From Minisyncoccota bacterium (GTDB lineage Bacteria > Patescibacteriota > Minisyncoccia > UBA6257 > 1-14-0-10-44-23), in assembly GCA_041389085.1 (NCBI GenBank), contig JAWKSL010000003.1, positions 1-59,473 of the forward strand: a DNA stretch of 59,473 nucleotides, given 5' to 3'. Below are positions 2,384-45,232 of the stretch, one piece after another (positions within the stretch are counted from its first letter, which is position 1; each line of letters opens with the position of its first letter). The notes below the pieces were generated by a model. It ran no database searches, was not told the origin of the DNA, and saw nothing but the letters and a program-made list of their open reading frames with translations. The position numbers and the translations under genes were made by a program.

Positions 2384-2791
2384 CTAGGAGTTATCCCCTT
2401 TTTTGAAATCGAGACTGACTGAGTTTATACAGTAGTGTTTTCCGTCGCCTTTGTAGTCTTCGAAAACGTGGCCTAAGTGCGACCCACACTGTGCACAGAC
2501 TACTTCTACACGCTCCATACCATGCGAGGTATCGAGCTGGGTCTTTACTGCGCCTTCTATTGCGTTTCTAAAGTGTGGCCAACCTTGTAGTCCTATCGGC
2601 CCGGTACGGGAATTTGCCTTTGTTTTCGACGAAAAGAGGGCGTTATTGCAGACTTTACAGTGGTAGAGGCCGTCATCTTGCAAATCTACATATTCGCCCG
2701 AGAAAGGGGCTTCAGTACCCTTGTTTTGCGTTACGTCGAAGGCCTGGTTCCCTATCTTTGCCTTGAGGTCTTTTGCTGTTTTTTCGTCCAT
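2384..2791 (-). CDS. msrB: Peptide-methionine (R)-S-oxide reductase
   Basis: 135 aa with two CxxC pairs (CKVCNN, CAQCGSHLGHVF) and the GWPHF motif typical of MsrB/SelR. Confidence 0.9.
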   Translation of the reverse strand: MDEKTAKDLKAKIGNQAFDVTQNKGTEAPFSGEYVDLQDDGLYHCKVCNNALFSSKTKANSRTGPIGLQGWPHFRNAIEGAVKTQLDTSHGMERVEVVCAQCGSHLGHVFEDYKGDGKHYCINSVSLDFKKGDNS

Positions 2792-2840
2792 TATGGTATG
2801 TTGTATTTTAGAGTGCTAATTAATCCAAATAATACCATTT

Positions 2841-3302
2841 ATGCAAAATAAAGTTTTAGTAATCTTAATCGTTATCTTGCTTATCATCATCGGTATCGTT
2901 GCTGTGCAGAACAGTAAGATGGATGATACTAGTGACGATGAAATGACTGGGGAAGAAATGCAGGCTGATGACGCTATGATGGAGGGCGACGACTCTCAGG
3001 CAAGCGCTGACAGCACTGGTGTGGTAGCGGGAGTAAACATCAACACTTCACTTGCTGGAGTTTGGAAGAGCACCGCACTACCTCGTTACATCCTTGAGCT
3101 TTCAGCTGACGGAGTAGCTCGCGAATACTACGCAAAGACACTTACCAACACTGGAAGCTGGACTGCAAGCGACGAAAGCTTGAACGTAGTATTTACCGGA
3201 CGCAACTACAGCTACAAACTTATCACCGTAAATCGTGATAGTTTCGTGGTTGAATACATCGCAACTGGTGAGCGACTACAGTTCACTCAAGCAAACTACT
3301 AA
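2841..3302 (+). CDS. Membrane-anchored protein with an acidic Met/Asp/Glu-rich linker
   Basis: 153 aa with an N-terminal TM helix followed by DDTSDDEMTGEEMQADDAMMEGDD. Confidence 0.7.
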   Translation: MQNKVLVILIVILLIIIGIVAVQNSKMDDTSDDEMTGEEMQADDAMMEGDDSQASADSTGVVAGVNINTSLAGVWKSTALPRYILELSADGVAREYYAKTLTNTGSWTASDESLNVVFTGRNYSYKLITVNRDSFVVEYIATGERLQFTQANY

Positions 3303-5374: not shown

Positions 5375-5800
5375 TGAATTCCCGCGCGTAGCTACTTATA
5401 GCGTACGCGCGGGACTGAAGGGGGAACCGACCGGTGCACTACTCGATTGATCAGGAGAAAGGGAATCCTTGCTAGCGTCGAGCTCGCTCTCCGGTCGGTT
5501 CGCTGAGGTTTGTCTATCGCGTGCGTGAGACCTGATTAGTTCAGCCTCTCGCCCTTCTCATCCACTGGAAGCTTTCGCCACGACAAGGAATTCGTGTTCC
5601 CCGCTCCCATGTTCAGGGTGTGTGGCACCACACATACGGCACCTTGAGGTGTGGGTGCAGGGCTCCATAGGGCACTAGTCCGTACCTTTTGGCCTGGATG
5701 AGAACACTTGCTCTTTCTAGGTAAGTTTTCCCTAGGACGTTTTTGGGCTATGAACAAGCGTGGTCTTGGTGCGACGTTTGGTTAGCCTACTTTAGCTTAG
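5375..5800. ncRNA. GC-rich non-coding region with extensive helices; candidate structured RNA of unknown class
   Basis: No convincing ORF despite high G+C. There is a 10-bp perfect hairpin CCCGCGCGTA..TACGCGCGGG (5381-5413), an 11-bp long-range helix GAACCGACCGG..CCGGTCGGTTC (5424-5501), and alternative hairpins around 5615-5660. Strand is undetermined. Confidence 0.3.
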
Positions 5801-6209: not shown

Positions 6210-7082
6210 CTACTCAGCTTGTGGGTCCACTATCTTTTCTTCTGTACTTTCTTCTATTTCCTTAGGTTGTGGCACACTTCCTTTTTCGGTGAAAAAGACT
6301 CTGTTTTTTACTGACAAATTTACTTCGCTGAATGCGCTTAGATTCTCATCGTCTGCGAGTTTGGCCAAGGCTGGGATAGCACTAATTCCTGGATCAAAGC
6401 GGTAGCTAAAACGGATTGTTGTGCCATTTTTTGTCTTAAACTGAAACTCTTGTAAGTCGCGGTGCAAAAGTATTTTTTCAACACTGACTTTTTTTGCTTT
6501 CATTGCGGCAATGATTGATTTTAAATATTCAAACTGTGTCGAAAGCACTACCTTTTCCCCACGCTCAAATCCAATCGTACTTACTGGTTCATGAATACTT
6601 AAGATAAGCTGACCGCTTGTGTTGGGCGCACTTTCAAATGCTTGCCCCGTTTCGTCTACCCATTGGCATGCGAGATATTCCGCTTCTTCTACAATTTTTG
6701 ATTTACACCAGCTTAAATACTGTATTTTTGGTTTTGTATAAATTTGGACCTCCCGGGTTTTAAAACTTTTTTTAACTTCTATCGACATAAACCGTTGGTC
6801 GCTATAGTGTTCGCCTCTTTCCCAAACAAAAAGACTGTTTTCGCCAAGCAACACTTTCCCTGATGAACTAAGTACTTGGGAGTTTAAATCTCTCAGAAAT
6901 TCTTTTGGGCTTGTACTTTCATTTAGCCCATAAATTTGAAAGCGTGAAACTTGGAACAGTGGAGAGAAAATAACTAGATAGCACAGACCAAAAAATGCCC
7001 CGATTCCGACGAGGATATACGCCCACTGCTTTACCTTGCTTAAAAGAGCAACTTCTTTGTGTCGCTTACTTTTGAAGTGCAT
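6210..7082 (-). CDS. ftsQ: Cell division protein FtsQ-like (TM + POTRA)
   Basis: N-terminal basic segment and TM helix followed by FQVSRFQIYG (POTRA start). Located directly downstream of ddl and alr, a dcw-type context. Confidence 0.6.
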   Translation of the reverse strand: MHFKSKRHKEVALLSKVKQWAYILVGIGAFFGLCYLVIFSPLFQVSRFQIYGLNESTSPKEFLRDLNSQVLSSSGKVLLGENSLFVWERGEHYSDQRFMSIEVKKSFKTREVQIYTKPKIQYLSWCKSKIVEEAEYLACQWVDETGQAFESAPNTSGQLILSIHEPVSTIGFERGEKVVLSTQFEYLKSIIAAMKAKKVSVEKILLHRDLQEFQFKTKNGTTIRFSYRFDPGISAIPALAKLADDENLSAFSEVNLSVKNRVFFTEKGSVPQPKEIEESTEEKIVDPQAE

Positions 7083-7085
7083 GTA

Positions 7086-8219
7086 CTATTGAACAAATTC
7101 CTTTTTAATAAGCGGATTGATGCGCGTAAGGATTTCGTAGCGAGAGCTGTTTTCCATATTAAGCTCCCATTCTTCTGGTGTTATTTTTTCTTTTCCCTGC
7201 TTCCCAATTAAGGTTACTACATCGCCTCTTTTGCAGGAAATATCAGTAACATCTACAACCGTAACGTCCATCGAAACTTTGCCAACTATACGGGCTCGCT
7301 TCCCATTTACAAGGAATTCTCCCACTTTGGAAAGGCGCCTATCGACTCCGTGCCAATACCCAACCGGAACAACTGCGAGCGTGGTATCTCTATGAAGCTT
7401 TTCACTTAAATCATAGCCAACATACTCTCCTTTTTTCACTTTTTTTATTTCACTGATCTGTGCGTGCCAGCTGAGTACTGGTTTTGGTTCAAGATTTGAG
7501 AAGTGAGTGGCGAGCTCTTTTGTTGGGAAATATCCGTAGAGAATGAAGCCTGCTCGCACTTGGTCTAGCGTGTACTTTTTTGATTGAAAAATACCAGCAC
7601 TCGCTGCAATGTGTTTTGTAAGCGTGCGAAATTCTTCGCTTTCGGCGAGCGTAGTAGCAAGCATAAAGGTGTCGAACTGCTGCTTTGTATACGTTTGATA
7701 CACGATGTCTTTTGCAGCACAAAAGTGAGAGTACATTCCTTTTAGCGGCAAGGTATTTTTCTTAATATAGCGGAGTGCTTTTTTTAGGTCAGCAACTTCG
7801 AAGCCCTGGCGGTGCATGCCTGTTTCGATTTTGAGGTGAAAACTTGGCTGTAGCTGAGGTTCGGATACTTGATTAAGCTCTTCGAGGCCTTCTTGTGTTG
7901 AAATAGTGACCATGAGGTCGTTTTGAGCCGCTACCTCGAGAAGATCTTTACTTGTTGGGCCTAATATAAGAATTGGGCTTTGGATTTCTTGTTTTCGCAA
8001 CTTTACTCCCTCAATTACTGAATCTACGCAAAAGCCATCTACCCCTGCTGCGTGTGCGAGAGCTGCAAAATTTGTAAGTCCGTGACCATAGGCATTTGAT
8101 TTTACAACCGAAAAAAGCTTTGCGTCTTTGCCGATCAATGAACGCACTAATGCAACATTGCTTCTTACGGCTGACTTTGAAAGCTCAATCCAAGTTTTTG
8201 GTCGTATACTCCCTTTCAT
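7086..8219 (-). CDS. alr: Alanine racemase
   Basis: VVKSNAYGHG PLP-lysine motif, 377 aa, C-terminal beta domain. Confidence 0.9.
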   Translation of the reverse strand: MKGSIRPKTWIELSKSAVRSNVALVRSLIGKDAKLFSVVKSNAYGHGLTNFAALAHAAGVDGFCVDSVIEGVKLRKQEIQSPILILGPTSKDLLEVAAQNDLMVTISTQEGLEELNQVSEPQLQPSFHLKIETGMHRQGFEVADLKKALRYIKKNTLPLKGMYSHFCAAKDIVYQTYTKQQFDTFMLATTLAESEEFRTLTKHIAASAGIFQSKKYTLDQVRAGFILYGYFPTKELATHFSNLEPKPVLSWHAQISEIKKVKKGEYVGYDLSEKLHRDTTLAVVPVGYWHGVDRRLSKVGEFLVNGKRARIVGKVSMDVTVVDVTDISCKRGDVVTLIGKQGKEKITPEEWELNMENSSRYEILTRINPLIKKEFVQ

Positions 8220-8227
8220 TTGTTTTA

Positions 8228-9232
8228 TTATAGCGTGGCTGATTCGATGAGGCGGCTTATTAGGTCTGTGTACGAAATTCCTTCGTGCTGAAGAAGCTTC
8301 GGATACATGCTGATATTGGTAAACCCAGGAATTGTGTTTACCTCATTTACATATATTTTTTCTCCAACTAAGAAGAGGTCGATGCGCGCCATGACGCGAC
8401 TTTCAAGAGCATAAAATGTTTTGAGTGCAACTTCTTTCGCGACTTTTGTTTGCTTCGCTGTTAGTTTTGCTGGTATTTGTGTAGTCGTTTTACTTTTTGC
8501 TGAATATTTTTCTTTATACGAATAGAATTTTCCTGGAGTTATAACTTCGCCTGGCACTGAGACTACTGGTTTAGCTTTGTCTGCGAGTATTGCCACTTCA
8601 AGCTCTCTTCCTTTCATTTCCTTTTCAATAAGTACCTTTGTGTCGTATTTAAATGCCTCTTGCAGTGCCTTACTGTAGGCTTTTTGATTTTCTACACGAC
8701 TTACGCCGACTGAACTACCCATATTTGCTGGCTTTACGTACAGCGTTTTACCGAGCTTTTTCGCTGCCTCTTTATAGGCTACTGGTGAGTTTTTTCTACT
8801 AACTAAGTACGGCGCTACTGGAATATTTGAATCTTCTAGTAGTCTTTTCATAACTTCTTTGTCCATCCCAACTGCGCTGGCAAGCACTTTGGCTCCTACG
8901 TATGGAATCTGCACCATATCAAGCATTCCCTGAAGCTTTCCGTCTTCTCCGTTTGGGCCGTGGAGAACTGGCAGGGCCACGTCTATCTTTAAATACTGCT
9001 TCCCAGTCTTTTCAAAAATAAGCCTTCCGCCTGAGGTGAAAGCTAGCTTTTCTTTTGTTGGCTTTAGAGTCTTTTGATCTGTCTTTAGAAAATCTCCTTG
9101 CTTTGAAATATACACTGCTGTCGGTGCATATTTTTTTGTATCGAGCGCAGCGATGATGTTTTGTGTAGAAAGGATTGAAATTTCGTGCTCAGCTGACTGG
9201 CCACCATACAGTATTAAGACTTTTTTCTTCAT
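8228..9232 (-). CDS. ddl: D-alanine--D-alanine ligase
   Basis: ATP-grasp protein with LILYGGQSAEHEIS, LPVLHGPNGEDG and EVNTIPGFT motifs. Confidence 0.9.
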   Translation of the reverse strand: MKKKVLILYGGQSAEHEISILSTQNIIAALDTKKYAPTAVYISKQGDFLKTDQKTLKPTKEKLAFTSGGRLIFEKTGKQYLKIDVALPVLHGPNGEDGKLQGMLDMVQIPYVGAKVLASAVGMDKEVMKRLLEDSNIPVAPYLVSRKNSPVAYKEAAKKLGKTLYVKPANMGSSVGVSRVENQKAYSKALQEAFKYDTKVLIEKEMKGRELEVAILADKAKPVVSVPGEVITPGKFYSYKEKYSAKSKTTTQIPAKLTAKQTKVAKEVALKTFYALESRVMARIDLFLVGEKIYVNEVNTIPGFTNISMYPKLLQHEGISYTDLISRLIESATL

Positions 9233-10146
9233 GGACGGCGCGTATCTCTTTTGTTTATAAACTCGGTTCGAATTTTGAGATTTGATTGGTCGCCAGCTTT
9301 ATCGAGCACAATTGGTTCGTTAAACAAATCAATTTTTACTGCCTTTCCATCTACTTTTAGAGTGTGTCCTGCTCCTTTTGTTAAAATAATTCGTCGCCTT
9401 TCGGAAGGGCTTGCGAATCGCTTTAAAAGTGAGTTTGCTTTTTCTAGTTTTTCGGTGAGTGGGTCAAGCGTTATAATTTTTCCTTCAATAAGAGCTTCTA
9501 CCCATACGTGTTGATTTTCGAGAACTTCTTGGTCTGGTCTTAGGATAAAGCCGGTTACTGGATAACAAGCAATGTTTTTTTGCTTAAGAATTTCTATTAA
9601 AACATTTGCGAATCCGCTTGCGTTTGTTTTTTCATTTTCAAGGGCAGCTTTTGCCGAACAGTAGTCTCTTAGCTCTTTATCGAACTGTAGGAAATCTTTT
9701 ACGTGCGCATTTGCGGCTTTAAGAAATTCTTGCTCGGTAGGATTTGTTTTCTCAAGATCTGCTGCGATCTTTTGAATTTTTTCATTCTTTACTGCTTTTT
9801 CTATTTCGGGAGTTGCTTGTTCCTCCTGTGGACGCTGAACTGCTGCGGTAAAATACTGATTAAGCGTTATTGAGTGGTGAGACTTAAGGTCTATGCGGTA
9901 ATGAGCGTAGCCCGCGCCTTTTAGCTGCGGATACACTTTTGCCGGCTCTGGTCGAAATTGCGCCGGAGCGATGAGTTTTTGGCCACTAAAATCTGAAGCT
10001 ACCGGGATGTAGATCTCTAGCTTTTTATCAGTTTCTGATACGTTTTTTATCTGTACCGAATAGTTGCAGAGGTAGGTCTGAGCCTTTGGGGTTGCAGATT
10101 TTCGAGGAATTTTTGACCCCACTGCTTGAATAGCTTTTTTCAGCAT
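9229..10146 (-). CDS. Transglutaminase-like superfamily protein
   Basis: Cys-His-Asp core pattern: NIACYPVTGF ... NQHVWVEALIEGKIITLDP. Confidence 0.6.
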   Translation of the reverse strand: MLKKAIQAVGSKIPRKSATPKAQTYLCNYSVQIKNVSETDKKLEIYIPVASDFSGQKLIAPAQFRPEPAKVYPQLKGAGYAHYRIDLKSHHSITLNQYFTAAVQRPQEEQATPEIEKAVKNEKIQKIAADLEKTNPTEQEFLKAANAHVKDFLQFDKELRDYCSAKAALENEKTNASGFANVLIEILKQKNIACYPVTGFILRPDQEVLENQHVWVEALIEGKIITLDPLTEKLEKANSLLKRFASPSERRRIILTKGAGHTLKVDGKAVKIDLFNEPIVLDKAGDQSNLKIRTEFINKRDTRRP

Positions 10147-10179
10147 GATGGGCTGATTATATCATTTGCGGCTTTTTCT

Positions 10180-10218
10180 AAAAAGAGAGCCCGCTTGTGT
10201 CCCCTGACACGAGCGGGC
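10180..10218 (-). terminator. Intrinsic terminator of cassette 1
   Basis: Minus strand GCCCGCTCGTGTC-AGGG-GACACAAGCGGGC followed by TCTCTTTTT. Confidence 0.7.
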
Positions 10219-10235
10219 GAAGTTGTTGTGGCGGC

Positions 10236-10505
10236 CTAGAGGTCGCTTGTCAGGCCCAGGAGCTCTTCGGCGCTTCGCTTCTCCTTGGCTGTGAGGTACA
10301 CCTCACAATCTTCCAAGAAGCGCTTCTTGCGCATCGGAGCGCAAAGGGCTGCTTGCAAAGCCCCCTTCTGCTGAGGGGTGATCTCTCCCGCAGCTACTGC
10401 TGTCAGAAGGTCGTGGCGCAGGTTGCGCTGGCCGTCGTCCAGAAGCTGAATCATTCCTTTCGGTGTGCTGGGAAACGGGACTTTGACGTCCTTTTGTGCG
10501 GGCAT
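10236..10505 (-). CDS. Small GC-rich ORF, 89 aa (cassette 1)
   Basis: ATG at 10505 with GGAGG 5 nt upstream. MPAQKDVKVPFPSTPKGMIQLLDDGQRNL... The ORF fills the space between the leader and the terminator. Confidence 0.55.
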   Translation of the reverse strand: MPAQKDVKVPFPSTPKGMIQLLDDGQRNLRHDLLTAVAAGEITPQQKGALQAALCAPMRKKRFLEDCEVYLTAKEKRSAEELLGLTSDL

Positions 10506-10581
10506 GAGAACCTCCACTGAAGCGAACTCCCCACGAGTTGCTCAGACTGTTAGATTAACAAGGTTTTTACTTTTTTGTAAA
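10506..10581 (-). promoter_or_regulatory. Promoter plus conserved leader hairpin, cassette 1
   Basis: TTTACA-N18-TAATCT, then CTGAGCAACTCGTGGGGAGTT (AACTC/GAGTT stem). The motif is shared with cassettes 2 and 3. Confidence 0.55.
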
Positions 10582-10614
10582 GAGAAACCCGCCTCGTCTT
10601 TTGACTTTGGCGGG
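10579..10614 (-). terminator. Intrinsic terminator of cassette 2
   Basis: CCCGCC-loop-GGCGGG followed by TTTCTCTTT, which runs into the next TTTACA -35 box. Confidence 0.7.
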
Positions 10615-10622
10615 TCGCTGGA

Positions 10623-10889
10623 TCATCGTCGGATGAAGCGTTTTGCAACTCTCTCTCCAACAATGTCTGTGAACGTTTTCATGTGCCTCTTCCAGTCGAG
10701 CACAAGGCGCAGGTTCGTAGCTTCGTCCCACGCGAGCCTTCCGGCTACCGCATCGGCACACAGGGCTTCTCTACCCTCGCAGTACCCGTTCATGATGCGT
10801 AGCACATTGGAAAGCGTCAGCCTTTCGGGCGCTTCCGGCTTTTTCTTCTTCCCTTTCCATTTTTTCGGCATGGGCTTTCCTACTGGCAA
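10623..10889 (-). CDS. Small GC-rich ORF, 88 aa (cassette 2)
   Basis: ATG with an AGGAAAG RBS. MPVGKPMPKKWKGKKKKPEAPERLTLSNVLRIMNGY... Confidence 0.55.
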   Translation of the reverse strand: MPVGKPMPKKWKGKKKKPEAPERLTLSNVLRIMNGYCEGREALCADAVAGRLAWDEATNLRLVLDWKRHMKTFTDIVGERVAKRFIRR

Positions 10890-10945
10890 CTCCCCGTGAG
10901 TTAGCTCAGATATTTAGACTAGCAAGAATTTAATTTTCCTGTAAA
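10890..10945 (-). promoter_or_regulatory. Promoter plus conserved leader hairpin, cassette 2
   Basis: TTTACA-N18-TAGTCT, then CTGAGCTAACTCACGGGGAGTT. Confidence 0.55.
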
Positions 10946-10979
10946 GAGAAACCCGCCTGTACCCCAAGATACAGGCGGG
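10943..10979 (-). terminator. Intrinsic terminator of cassette 3
   Basis: CCCGCCTGT-loop-ACAGGCGGG followed by TTTCTCTTT. Confidence 0.7.
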
Positions 10980-11003
10980 TTGAGTTGTGAGTGACCAGCA
11001 GTG

Positions 11004-11237
11004 CTAGTCGAGGTCGAAGCTGCGGTGCGGAACGCCCTGGACGTGCGTGCTGCTCGGCAGGTCGCGCCTGGGCCCCCTCAGGCCGTTGATCACGCGCGGC
11101 TGCGGCGTCTGGACGTGGGCGTGCGTGCGCGGAGCGCTCGGATCCCTTCCTTCGCGTTGCGCCGCCTCGTTGCGCCGGCGCTGCTTCTCGATGAGCTCCC
11201 AGGGTGTCGTGCGAACGTTGTTTGCGGGCTGGGGCAT
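11004..11237 (-). CDS. Small GC-rich ORF, 77 aa (cassette 3)
   Basis: ATG with an AGGAGG RBS. MPQPANNVRTTPWELIEKQRRRNEAAQREGRD... The segment is about 70% G+C by hand count. Confidence 0.5.
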   Translation of the reverse strand: MPQPANNVRTTPWELIEKQRRRNEAAQREGRDPSAPRTHAHVQTPQPRVINGLRGPRRDLPSSTHVQGVPHRSFDLD

Positions 11238-11311
11238 GTTGCCTCCTTCTGTGCTAACTCCCCACGAGTTGGCTCAGGAATTTAAAGTACCACTTTTTTT
11301 AGATTTGTAAA
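11238..11311 (-). promoter_or_regulatory. Promoter plus conserved leader hairpin, cassette 3
   Basis: TTTACA-N18-CTTTAA, then CTGAGCCAACTCGTGGGGAGTT. Overlaps the serS terminator hairpin CCACTTTT..AAAAGTGG. Confidence 0.5.
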
Positions 11312-11317
11312 AGTGGA

Positions 11318-12574
11318 TTATTTGATTTCTTTTTTGCCGAGGTATTTACGGAGGGGCTTTGGCACCATGATTGTGCCTTTTGCGGTTTGAAAATTCTCTA
11401 CGAGAGAGACGAGAATGCGCGGAGTTGGGATGGCTGTGCAGTTAAGTGAGTGTGCAAACTCAAGCTTGCCGGCATCGTTTTTGTACTTAATGTTGAAGCG
11501 GCGTGTTTGAAAATCGTTGAAGTAGCTTGCTGAGCTTATTTCTCTGTATTTATTTTCCTGCGGCACCCAGAGTTCGATGTCGTATTTTTTTCTTTGACCA
11601 AGCCCTAAGTCTCCTGCGCAGTTGAGTACGGTGTGGTAAGGAATACCGAGGCTTTCAATGAATTCTTCAGTATTTCTGTTGAGCCAATCGTGCAGACGCT
11701 GACTTTCAGCTTCATCTGCCTTTGAAATCACTACTTGCTCGAGTTTGTAAAATTCGTGTACGCGAATAAGTCCTTTTGTATCTTTGCCGTGGCTTCCTGC
11801 TTCGCGGCGATAGCATGGGCTAAAGGCGAGCACTTTTTGTTCAGTCTTAAGATCGAGCACCTGGTCTGCAAAGTAGCCCATTGTCGCTACCTCTGCTGTA
11901 CCTGAGAGGAAATCGTCGTCTTGCGTTTTATAAATGTCTTCAACATCGTTTGGAAGGTGGCCGGTGCCGTAGAGATTTTGCTCTTTTACGATAGCTGGCA
12001 CAAGCATTGGGTTAAATCCTTTTTTCAGGAAGAAGTCTTGAGCGTAGTTCCAAATAGCCCAAGAAAGGAGAGCTCCATCGTTTTTAAGAAAATACCCACG
12101 AAAACCGTGTACTGCTGCCCCGCGCTCAAAATCAACCATATTCAGGCTTGTCATAAGCTCGACATGGTCTTTTGGCTCAAACTTAAACTCTGGCTTTTTC
12201 CCCCAAGCTTTAACTTCTTTGTTATCTGCGTCGCTTTTTCCTTCTGGAACTGACTCGTGTGGTACTTGCGGCACTTGCCACATAAGCTTTTGCCACTGTT
12301 CTTTTACAGGCTGCAAATCTGCTTCAAGCTTTTTAACCTCTTCTTTGAGAGTTGTTGATGCTTTAATAAGCTCCTCGCGCTTTTGGGCTGGCGCACTAGC
12401 TATTTTTTTCGCTGCTTTGTTCTGCTCTTCGCGCTTTTGGTCGAGGGCGTGCTGAATTTTTTTTCGCTGATCGTCTAAATCGAGCAATGCTTGAATGTCG
12501 ACTACTACACCTTTCTTTTTTGCACCTTCTATAACTGCGTCTTTATTTTCGCGAATGAAATTTATATCGAGCAT
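11318..12574 (-). CDS. serS: Serine--tRNA ligase
   Basis: 418 aa with an N-terminal coiled-coil arm and class II motifs (CYRREAGS, GLGQRKKYDIELW, SSASYFNDFQTRR). Confidence 0.92.
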   Translation of the reverse strand: MLDINFIRENKDAVIEGAKKKGVVVDIQALLDLDDQRKKIQHALDQKREEQNKAAKKIASAPAQKREELIKASTTLKEEVKKLEADLQPVKEQWQKLMWQVPQVPHESVPEGKSDADNKEVKAWGKKPEFKFEPKDHVELMTSLNMVDFERGAAVHGFRGYFLKNDGALLSWAIWNYAQDFFLKKGFNPMLVPAIVKEQNLYGTGHLPNDVEDIYKTQDDDFLSGTAEVATMGYFADQVLDLKTEQKVLAFSPCYRREAGSHGKDTKGLIRVHEFYKLEQVVISKADEAESQRLHDWLNRNTEEFIESLGIPYHTVLNCAGDLGLGQRKKYDIELWVPQENKYREISSASYFNDFQTRRFNIKYKNDAGKLEFAHSLNCTAIPTPRILVSLVENFQTAKGTIMVPKPLRKYLGKKEIK

Positions 12575-20726: not shown

Positions 20727-21416
20727 TCATCCGAGCCAGAAGACTGCTGCATTCCTGCTTTGGTCTCCTCGCCGGTGAGAGTGGTAGGTGTATTCACCTT
20801 CCACCTTCGCACACGCGGTGCATCTTGCCTCGATGTTGGTGTAGTTCACCCGGATGCCGCTTCTGAGCATCTGCTCACGAATGAGCTTGATCAGGTTGAC
20901 CGTTGCCTTTGGCCCGGCGGCTTGACTCCCTTCTTTTTCGAGCAAACTCATCGCATGGGGAGCTGTGTAGCAGCACGGTCCGATTCCGTAGCCGATGAAG
21001 GCTTCGGTGAAATGCTTGCCGAATCGCTGCGCAATGCAGTCGATTAGACTGGGACGGCCCTGACCGGTGAGATCTACAAGGCTTCCGAGCCCACAGTGCG
21101 CGACTACCAGCTGTGTTTGGCTGGCAAGCGCAAGAATGGGGCAGTCGGCATTGCTGATGACTGCGGCCTGCCCGCGACCGACACTGACAGCGTCTGCCTG
21201 CTGGCAGCTGCGCCAGACGTTGGAGTCGATGGAGGAAAACGCTTCCTCCTGGCTCGGCCATAATGTGTCGCGGACAAAGGCGCAGCGAATCGAGTAGAGG
21301 TCGCTTCGTGTGGGCGACTTAGCCCGAAGCGCTTGCGCAAACTCCTGAGGCGACGCGAAATGCGCCGGCTTGAAGTCTCCCTGGCTCCTTCCGAGCAGGG
21401 CTGATCGGATTAGCAT
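20727..21416 (-). CDS. pgeF: YfiH/PgeF (DUF152) family protein; GC-rich outlier
   Basis: 229 aa with ADCPIL, VAHCGLGS and YSHRRGDQSRNAAV motifs of the purine nucleoside phosphorylase/laccase-domain YfiH family. G+C is visibly far above the flanking genes. Confidence 0.75.
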   Translation of the reverse strand: MLIRSALLGRSQGDFKPAHFASPQEFAQALRAKSPTRSDLYSIRCAFVRDTLWPSQEEAFSSIDSNVWRSCQQADAVSVGRGQAAVISNADCPILALASQTQLVVAHCGLGSLVDLTGQGRPSLIDCIAQRFGKHFTEAFIGYGIGPCCYTAPHAMSLLEKEGSQAAGPKATVNLIKLIREQMLRSGIRVNYTNIEARCTACAKVEGEYTYHSHRRGDQSRNAAVFWLG

Positions 21417-44604: not shown

Positions 44605-45232
44605 ATGAGCGAAAACGTACACACTGCGGATAGCGGTGTGTGCCGCTACCCTGCCCTTCTTCAGCTTGTCAGCTTCAGCTTGGCCATCATCGTTGGCTTT
44701 TCGGCTAGCATCTACCAGATGTATGGAGTAAAGCTTATTGAGCTCGGCGCTTCTGAGCGAGGTCATTCACGCGTTTAGCGATGCCCTTGTGCTGGTACCT
44801 GCACTCATGGTCGCTTTCTTCCGCTATTCTGGCTTTGGCAAGGCTCGCTACCCGAACCTGGAGCGTCGAATCACTGATTGGATGGCCAACCTCATGATCG
44901 CGTGCGGAACGATCGCTGTGATTCTTTCCTTCGGTCACTTCTTCCATGTGGTTGAACTCCATGCGGAGGGTGGGAAAACCCCTGCGCTGTTTGGGCTTGG
45001 GGCAAACGCTGCCCAGTTTCTTCTGCTCCGTTGGTGTATAACGTGCCGCGTCCATCGCCTGGCGCGCTCCCACCTACTCATCGATTCGATCTCGAGCGTT
45101 GTCGTTGTAATCGAGCTTCATCTCGAACTCAACAAGCGCACAGGGCTTCCGATCGACGCGCTTGCTGGTTTTGCCCTTGGCATCATGCTTGTCATGGCCG
45201 GTGCAAAGGGTGGCCACAACCACGCGCACTAA
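44605..45232 (+). pseudogene. CDF-like (cation diffusion facilitator) transmembrane-only protein; GC-rich, split by a frameshift
   Basis: GGAGG RBS and ATG at 44605. TM1 is in frame 1 (to 44778). Frame 2 from 44738 carries SSALLSEVIHAFSDA and SHLLIDSISS (two HxxxD-type motifs). The frame change is near 44735-44745. Confidence 0.55.

Follow-up and report, generated by a model that had tools for sequence, protein, structure and literature searches.

In the promoter-early stem-loop (PeSL) cassettes of T4-type phages, a sigma-70-type promoter is joined to a terminator formed by a GC-rich stem-loop (PMC2839356, PMC4122927). Their direct repeats flank small ORFans and act as homology patches for the insertion, deletion and replacement of cassettes (Arbiol et al. 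2010, PMC2839356; Comeau et al. 2014, PMC4122927), and recombination between copies has been demonstrated through indels between close relatives and through mini-circles (PMC2839356, PMC4122927). Work on promoter reuse describes, in outline, putative mobile promoters as upstream stretches of 50 nt or more that are 80 % identical or better within a single genome and precede coding sequences without homology to each other (Matus-Garcia, Nijveen and van Passel 2012; commentary PMC3575422), and Correia elements provide both a promoter and a terminator (PMC3575422). The locus described here was found in a chromosomal contig of an uncultivated member of the Patescibacteria (Candidate Phyla Radiation, CPR). 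It occupies the 1.13 kb gap between serS (11318-12574, minus strand) and a transglutaminase-like gene (9229-10146, minus strand; transglutaminase-core domain, Pfam PF01841), and is composed of three head-to-tail units of about 365 bp each on the minus strand, designated A, B and C from the serS side. All coordinates refer to the window, which is the whole 59,473 bp (59.5 kb) stretch of DNA that was analysed. The array is a real structure that did not arise by chance, and an assembly artefact was excluded because the repeats are diverged, lie within a single contig and have unique cargo between them. The best explanation, to which an even chance is given, is that the units are three monocistronic orphan mini-genes in a hypervariable slot, whose shared frame of terminator, promoter and leader provides portable homology for cassette exchange.

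The core leader motif AACTCNNGGGGAGTT is present in exactly three copies in the window, at 10525-10539, 10888-10902 and 11256-11270, all on the minus strand, compared with 0.12 copies expected from shuffled sequences, and none of 100 shuffles reached three. In its 22-nt form the leader has no mismatches in two units, and the third copy is one base shorter. A repeat search recovered these families as well, with copies 363 and 368 bp apart, and aligned 10540-10594 of unit C with 10904-10958 of unit B (55 nt, 80 % identity), a segment covering a terminator arm, the promoter and the start of the leader.

Each unit begins with the -35 box TTTACA, located at 11306-11311 in unit A, 10940-10945 in unit B and 10576-10581 in unit C (all minus strand). 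The -10-like boxes on the same strand are TACTTT at 11284-11289 in unit A, with a 16-nt spacer and a TG before the box, TAGTCT at 10916-10921 in unit B and TAATCT at 10552-10557 in unit C, the last two with an 18-nt spacer. The distance from the -10 box to the CTGAGC at the start of the leader is exactly 6 nt in 3/3 units, and from this distance a normal start site would put the leader at the 5' end of the transcript. The leader stem-loops are CUGAGCCAACUCGUGGGGAGUUAGCACAG in unit A (11249-11277, minus strand, -10.9 kcal/mol), CUGAGCUAACUCACGGGGAGUUGCCAG in unit B (10883-10909, minus strand, -9.3 kcal/mol) and CUGAGCAACUCGUGGGGAGUUCGCUUCAG in unit C (10517-10545, minus strand, -11.5 kcal/mol). 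All fold as CUG.GC.AACUC / GAGUU.GC.CAG, an interrupted 10-bp stem with the loop (GU/AC)GGG, and the outer pairs are retained despite bulges of 0 to 2 nt. The -35 box of unit A lies within a weak hairpin directly after the serS stop codon, CCACUUUU-N11-AAAAGUGG at 11289-11316 on the minus strand (-7 kcal/mol, z = -3.3), which starts 2 nt past the stop and lacks a U-tract, so that read-through from serS into unit A is possible.

Each unit is closed by a strong terminator on the minus strand. Terminator A (10950-10981) has a 14-bp stem (-24.9 kcal/mol, z = -7.4), terminator B is at 10586-10616 (-19.2 kcal/mol, z = -3.7), and terminator C, CCCGCT...AGCGGG, is at 10189-10218 (-22.8 kcal/mol, z = -5.8). 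The U-tracts of terminators A and B pass directly into the next -35 box, the tail UUUCUCUUU of terminator A overlapping that of unit B and the tail of terminator B overlapping that of unit C, and the junction GGGTTTCTCTTTACA is identical at 10576-10590 and 10940-10954. On the 3' side of terminator C there is a T-rich element followed by a TATAAT box (10156-10161, minus strand) and, 9 nt on, the ATG of the transglutaminase-like gene (10146); here the array ends. Terminators A and C align base for base, with pairing kept through two compensatory double changes (C-G to U-A and A-U to G-C), and the 3' ends of the units are therefore related by descent too. Judged from these alignments, the whole frame is homologous across the units.

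An initial annotation of this region had proposed three same-strand units between the same two genes, with the leader in each and a reused regulatory junction, and all of this was borne out, with the correction that every element is on the minus strand. Its TTTACA-N18-TA(A/G)TCT promoter describes units B and C and does not describe unit A, which has TTTACA-N16-TACTTT preceded by TG. The 5-bp AACTC/GAGTT hairpin that it noted exists as part of the longer, interrupted stem. The CCCGCC...GGCGGG terminator pattern was right in that all units have strong terminators and wrong in the letters of the third, and the tail was correctly described as merging into the next TTTACA for terminators A and B, while terminator C runs into the promoter of the transglutaminase-like gene.

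Integron gene-cassette arrays are made up of promoterless cassettes with attC sites, together with an IntI tyrosine recombinase with its attI site and a common Pc promoter. The locus has the superficial layout of such an array, in that small, unrelated and often orphan ORFs (open reading frames) on the same strand are split by a repeated structured element, and an integron-like array whose cassettes were captured site-specifically was therefore weighed. Here, unlike in the promoterless cassettes of integrons, every unit comes with a promoter and a terminator of its own, and the junctions are composed of terminator and promoter and not of attC. No attC-like site was seen at the junctions; the hairpin that is repeated there is a terminator, GC-rich and followed by a U-tract, and lacks the R''/L''-L'/R' boxes of attC. 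A Pfam scan of 20 ORFs between 1238 and 28462, which left out a few small ORFs in that interval and the genes beyond it, revealed no recombinase or integrase, no reverse transcriptase and no phage gene. The integron reading is effectively refuted and has next to no probability left. A CRISPR-like (clustered regularly interspaced short palindromic repeats) array, a retron and a diversity-generating retroelement were also considered for the array and rejected.

Conservation within the frame differs greatly between segments. In segment alignments, the identity between units is 19-21/22 in the leader, 6/6 in the -35 box and 4-5/6 in the -10 box, and is 2-4/6 in the discriminator and 4-11/18 (22-61 %) in the promoter spacer. 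The leader is the best-conserved segment of the module and its most constrained part. Conserved functional elements with spacers that are near random indicate old copies under purifying selection, and a leader that stayed near invariant while the spacers diverged is most likely a sequence-specific handle. This fits the suggestion of the initial annotation that the shared leader is a common regulatory target.

Stem-loops at the 5' end that stabilise bacterial mRNAs, such as that in the 5' untranslated region (UTR) of E. coli ompA, require structure and not sequence. The leader resembles them as a stem-loop upstream of the Shine-Dalgarno (SD) site that would lie at, or a few nt from, the 5' end of the transcript. 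It differs from them in having a near-invariant sequence in three copies amid diverged surroundings, which suggests specific recognition, and because the sequence is conserved as well as the pairing, recognition by a protein or RNase is favoured over a generic 5' stabiliser.

The same conservation can be read at the level of DNA, with AACTC-N5-GAGTT as an operator overlapping the +1 position, bound by one dimeric repressor that controls all three genes, and the RNA hairpin as incidental. This reading, the chief alternative for the working of the leader, fits either of the evolutionary scenarios discussed below and is possible but doubtful. The perfect 5+5 inverted repeat is invariant in 3/3 copies and lies just downstream of the -10 box, the classic position for a repressor, and its sequence conservation exceeds what a generic stabiliser hairpin needs. 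However, the loop (GU/AC)GGG lacks symmetry although it is conserved. The outer pairs of CUGAGC/GC.CAG are retained while their spacing varies, which preserves an RNA stem and not the register of DNA half-sites, and no regulator gene is evident adjoining the array. The asymmetric loop and the register-shifting outer stem argue mildly for a leader that works at the RNA level.

In the best explanation, the units would work as follows. The terminator U-tract would double as the upstream edge of a sigma-70-type promoter, and with a start about 6-8 nt past the -10 box each transcript would open with the CUGAGC-AACUC-loop-GAGUU-GC-CAG stem-loop. Each unit would be transcribed separately, from around CUGAGC to its own terminator, which would insulate the gene from the next unit, and would then be translated from its own SD site and ATG-CCN. 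The leader would serve as the sequence-specific handle through which three unrelated products receive the same control, exerted by protection of the 5' end, by binding of one protein or RNase, or by both. The three mini-genes are probably co-regulated and independently transcribed.

The cargo consists of ORF A (11004-11237, 77 aa, SD AAGGAGG, start ATG-CCC, Arg/Pro-rich), ORF B (10623-10871, 82 aa, SD AGGAAA, start ATG-CCG, Lys-rich N-terminus) and ORF C (10236-10505, 89 aa, SD GGAGG, start ATG-CCC), all on the minus strand. Each has an ATG preceded by an SD site and a stop codon 9-22 nt before its own terminator. The ATG-CCN start is common to 3/3 ORFs, and the SD sites are not conserved between units. 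No similarity was found among the three products, as BLASTP gave no alignment better than E = 17 and Smith-Waterman scores were at z = -0.5 to +0.1 against shuffles, i.e. about 0. The initial annotation was correct in describing GC-rich ORFs of 77-89 aa with an SD site and ATG-CCN start, and in calling their products unrelated. The GC content is 0.71 in ORF A, 0.54 in ORF B and 0.59 in ORF C, with values at the first, second and third codon positions (GC1/2/3) of 0.71/0.53/0.88, 0.54/0.45/0.63 and 0.67/0.40/0.69, respectively, and the composition of ORF A is clearly distinct from that of B and C. Host genes in the rest of the window have a GC content of 0.40-0.48 and a GC3 of 0.33-0.52, except in a few other GC-rich islands, and the genome average is 0.45. 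The composition of the cargo is foreign to the host and shows a coding-type pattern of GC by codon position.

The three ORFs have no recognisable relatives. ORFs B and C gave only self-matches among 5.8 billion proteins, and ORF A gave one spurious low-complexity match (E = 8e-4) in a phmmer search of 1.84 billion representatives. No match was found for the ORFs in Pfam, PHROGs, NCBIfam or PADLOC, even at E thresholds of 1-10, for ORFs B and C among PDB sequences, for ORFs A, B and C by tblastn against 50,697 phage genomes at E <= 1 or by pattern and tblastn searches of IMG/VR contigs, or for the array by blastn against phages and plasmids. Look-ups of the exact protein sequences of ORFs A, B and C and of SerS returned no recorded entry. 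AlphaFold predicted four helices after the N-terminus for ORF B with low confidence (pLDDT, predicted local distance difference test, 55) and five helices for ORF C with moderate confidence (pLDDT 73, single-sequence input). ORF A is probably disordered, judged from its composition. The best Foldseek matches of the ORF C model had E = 0.46 (PDB) and E = 0.65 (viral library), both to generic helical repeats. The structure and profile searches named in the initial annotation as a check on the ORFs thus yielded no homologue or family. A literature search on GC-rich orphan small genes in Patescibacteria gave nothing specific.

Such orphans could also be chance open frames in GC-rich sequence, with the units being non-coding RNAs or parts of a single processed transcript. 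This is very unlikely, although several observations agree with it: the ORFs are total orphans, a 77-codon open frame at 71 % GC is expected by chance in about 1 in 4 cases by our own estimate, the antisense frames are open as well, and ORF A is without a self-match in the library of representatives, which suggests that it was never called. Gene callers also disagree, since the public call of ORF C uses an internal Met start and gives 72 aa. On the other side, GC content has a period of three in the SD-preceded frames (GC3 > GC1 > GC2 in A; in B and C, GC2 is the lowest of the three), and ORF C has the predicted five-helix protein. The whole-transcript fold compared with shuffles has z = -0.4 for A, -3.1 for B and -1.7 for C, and the modest excess in B and C includes the leader and terminator hairpins; beyond these terminal hairpins the transcripts do not fold unusually well. 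Rfam 15 gave no match to the array at the gathering score and only chance-level matches to eukaryotic models at E <= 10, so that no membership of a known RNA family by covariance model was found. ORFs B and C are very probably coding, and ORF A is judged likely to be so with somewhat less confidence.

The slot beside serS was compared in relatives of the host. The closest database relative (L023, a contig from ENA) has a SerS that is 74 % identical and is syntenic, with the order adk-map-greA-lysS-serS, a gap, and the transglutaminase gene. Its gap (6760-8165) contains three mini-genes on one strand, encoding 63, 57 and 89 aa. All have a promoter, SD site and terminator of their own, and 2/3 have a hairpin near the 5' end of the transcript. 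The second promoter is a perfect consensus, TTGACA-17-TATAAT, at about 7421-7449. The GC content of these mini-genes is 63-66 %, compared with about 51 % for the contig, and their GC3 is 0.70-0.83. Neither the frames nor the ORFs have DNA or protein similarity to one another or to the units in the window. The presence of other orphan mini-genes in this gap indicates that the slot holds changing sets of small GC-rich orphan genes, and what is peculiar to the window is that three units have one shared frame. Among the six SerS relatives examined, only this contig shares the serS-transglutaminase slot; the other relatives, with SerS 66-69 % identical (L024-L029, L045-L047), have a different gene order.

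Upstream of its mini-genes, the relative also carries a pair of direct repeats of about 30 nt (CCTCGCCCATGC..GCGGGC) at about 6970-7050 and, near 6925-6965, a terminator that looks bidirectional. The transglutaminase-like gene is apparently leaderless in the window (10146-10182) and in the relative (8140-8170), with TATAAT 9 nt and 7 nt before the ATG, respectively, and no SD site. Two further GC-rich mini-gene units of the same general design (terminator, promoter, a 5' hairpin in one of them, SD site and ATG), with unrelated frames, lie at 1860-2370 of the window on the minus strand. They contain a 59-aa ORF at 2159-2338 (MPGK... start, GC 0.60) and a 34-aa ORF at 1923-2027 (GC 0.64), each followed by a strong terminator. 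A GC-rich (0.54-0.60) cluster of three small ORFs, at about 703-951, 510-662 and 352-513, occupies 352-984 on the minus strand; the ORFs resemble one signal-peptide protein and two single-pass membrane peptides, and a terminator near 320-350 ends the cluster. Its general design is again that of the array, with unrelated frames.

The frame was sought in 596 Gb of genomes, 241 million metagenome records and 2.9 million viral contigs. Scans with CTGAG-N1-2-AACTCNNGGGGAGTT gave six matches in GTDB genomes, 15 in JGI metagenomes and one in IMG/VR, and all of these, inspected in context, were due to chance, without a surrounding promoter, SD site or ATG. Viral scans with the junction GGCGGGTTTCTCTTTACA and a relaxed leader gave chance matches only, and neither the leader nor the junction motif occurs in the other 58 kb of the window. 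The search of genomes and metagenomes for the leader, also named as a check in the initial annotation, thus found no copy elsewhere in the right context. Of the refuting condition in that annotation, a motif absent elsewhere and outside the transcripts, the first half applies, but the motif probably lies inside the transcripts here. One of the chance matches is in a Candidatus Taylorbacteria contig (L001, JACPHR010000003.1), where 2580-3010 is occupied by a run of segments resembling tRNA 3' ends and ending in ...GCACA (e.g. ggttcgattcctgccagaagcaca, tttcctgccagaagcaca, ggttcgactccggccgagagcaca and tctccggccgggagcaca), which may have been left behind, one beside the other, by successive integrations at a tRNA gene.

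This distribution bears on whether the module is a miniature mobile repeat of the Correia, ERIC or REPIN type that inserted between pre-existing foreign ORFs. Its length of about 100 nt, its two inverted repeats, the promoter and terminator that it supplies, as in Correia elements, and the unrelated flanking cargo would all suit such an origin. It is nevertheless most improbable, as all three copies lie within 1.1 kb with none in the remainder of the contig, they run in the same direction and keep exactly one register with respect to the start codons, neither terminal inverted repeats nor target-site duplications were seen bounding the module, and the motifs are absent from other genomes.

The origin of the array was considered under two scenarios. 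In cassette exchange, the direct repeats formed by the frame of about 100 nt would allow small foreign ORFs to be gained, lost and swapped by homologous recombination, in the manner of PeSL cassettes. In plain tandem triplication of one mini-gene, the regulatory parts would have been held by purifying selection while the ORFs diverged under relaxed or diversifying selection, with no exchange. Triplication, which is judged rather unlikely, accounts for unit lengths that are nearly equal, for the ATG-CCN start and similar length of all three ORFs, and for frames that are homologous end to end, including terminators with compensatory changes; three copies are clustered with none elsewhere in 59 kb, and promoter spacers as diverged as those found here indicate duplicates old enough for short ORFs to have lost detectable similarity. 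It does not account for the lack of any residual protein similarity, or for a GC and GC3 that differ significantly between the ORFs (0.71/0.88 in A and 0.54/0.63 in B) and are all well above the host values, as long residence under the host mutational bias should have lowered GC3. The predicted folds also differ, from probable disorder in A to four helices in B and a five-helix bundle in C. The heterogeneous and un-ameliorated GC3 of the cargo, together with the variable slot, favour cassette exchange, which is placed slightly ahead of an old tandem triplication.

Several points weigh against mini-genes whose shared frame mediates exchange. Cassette mobility is a conjecture, and so is the cassette-array idea of the initial annotation. 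The frame is known from one genome only and was absent in the right context from every collection scanned; this absence and the clustering of the copies favour tandem triplication, and the near-equal unit lengths (363-368 bp) and common Met-Pro start fit tandem duplication equally well. The near-saturated spacers, which imply old frames, are an awkward fit with cargo whose GC3 has not drifted towards that of the host, and neither scenario explains old frames with apparently young cargo without an unsampled pool of units. The -10 boxes match E. coli TATAAT at 3-4/6 positions and are absent from the list of a generic promoter scan, and the inner palindrome AACTC-N5-GAGTT could be a DNA operator instead of an RNA hairpin. 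Lastly, the ORFs are complete orphans, which counts as evidence against coding, and for ORF A (71 % GC) an open frame alone is weak evidence of coding. The further proposal that the locus is a cellular counterpart of PeSL shuffling, i.e. an integrase-free, promoter-bearing platform that captures foreign ORFs beside serS and puts them under the control of one 5' hairpin in an episymbiotic bacterium, is regarded as unlikely.

The contig carries a chromosomal gene set that includes YchF, Alr, Ddl, SerS, LysS, GreA, MAP, Adk, PheS, a Mur ligase and five tRNAs; for alr, ddl, serS and lysS the identification is based on the translated sequence, and for SerS on its homologues as well. The best SerS matches are named Patescibacteria, Kaiserbacteria or Paceibacterota. 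Away from the array, ychF and an unknown 134-aa ORF are separated by a GC-rich stretch (about 0.58) at 5375-5740 (minus strand) that has a strong hairpin at its end and a minimum free energy of -143.9 kcal/mol (z = -5.1, reached by 0/100 shuffles). It has no Rfam match at E <= 1 and no transfer-messenger RNA was found in it by ARAGORN, and it is a candidate for an unannotated structured RNA. Two GC-rich outlier genes are likely horizontal acquisitions. One, at 20727-21416, has a YfiH/Cu-oxidase_4 domain (GC 0.59, GC3 0.67), and the other, at 44738-45232, is only weakly similar to cation-efflux proteins (E 0.002, which falls short of the curated cutoff) and has a GC content of 0.57.

A regulatory frame that outlives or outranges its cargo is unusual, and the case consists of one locus in one uncultivated genome. 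If the frame does mediate exchange and common control, the PeSL mechanism, known only from T4-type phages, would be extended to a bacterial chromosome, and the very small genomes of the CPR would have a route for acquiring and expressing foreign mini-proteins, which are the most opaque part of their gene content. The near-invariant 22-nt leader would be a compact regulatory element and, as more genomes of the lineage become available, a search handle for further members. If the array is only an old tandem triplication, it would be a tidy case of regulatory sequence outliving coding sequence, with little wider consequence.

Among described systems, tandem paralogous small-protein loci, such as type I toxin arrays, encode homologous peptides, whereas the products here are unrelated, and MITE-like repeats (miniature inverted-repeat transposable elements; Correia, ERIC and REPIN) have many dispersed copies bounded by terminal inverted repeats and target-site duplications, whereas the window showed neither such boundaries nor copies outside the array. 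The locus falls under the operational definition of promoter reuse through units B and C, whose unrelated ORFs are preceded by 55 nt of 80 % identity; outside the leader, the pairs that include unit A do not reach 80 %. Most putative mobile promoters are pairs at dispersed sites, whereas the copies here are tandem and adjacent, and the homology here extends to the 5' UTR hairpin and the 3' terminator, so that the whole non-coding frame is reused. By analogy of layout, PeSL is the closest analogue, although the locus is not a member. The two have in common a composite of a stable terminator (-19 to -25 kcal/mol here) and a sigma-70-like promoter (only consensus-like here), with repeated copies, three in this case, that flank orphan small ORFs in a variable region between conserved genes. 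They differ in that the locus lies in a Patescibacteria chromosome and not in a T4-type phage, its modules matching no phage records, and in that three copies are present at one locus, compared with dozens in PeSL. PeSL promoters are early promoters that the host polymerase reads. The promoters here fall short of the consensus, the cargo is heterogeneous and of foreign composition, and recombination between copies, demonstrated for PeSL, is conjectural here. The module here carries, in addition, a near-invariant leader hairpin downstream of the promoter. The array is best filed as PeSL-like reuse of promoter and terminator in a CPR chromosome, with a conserved 5' hairpin.

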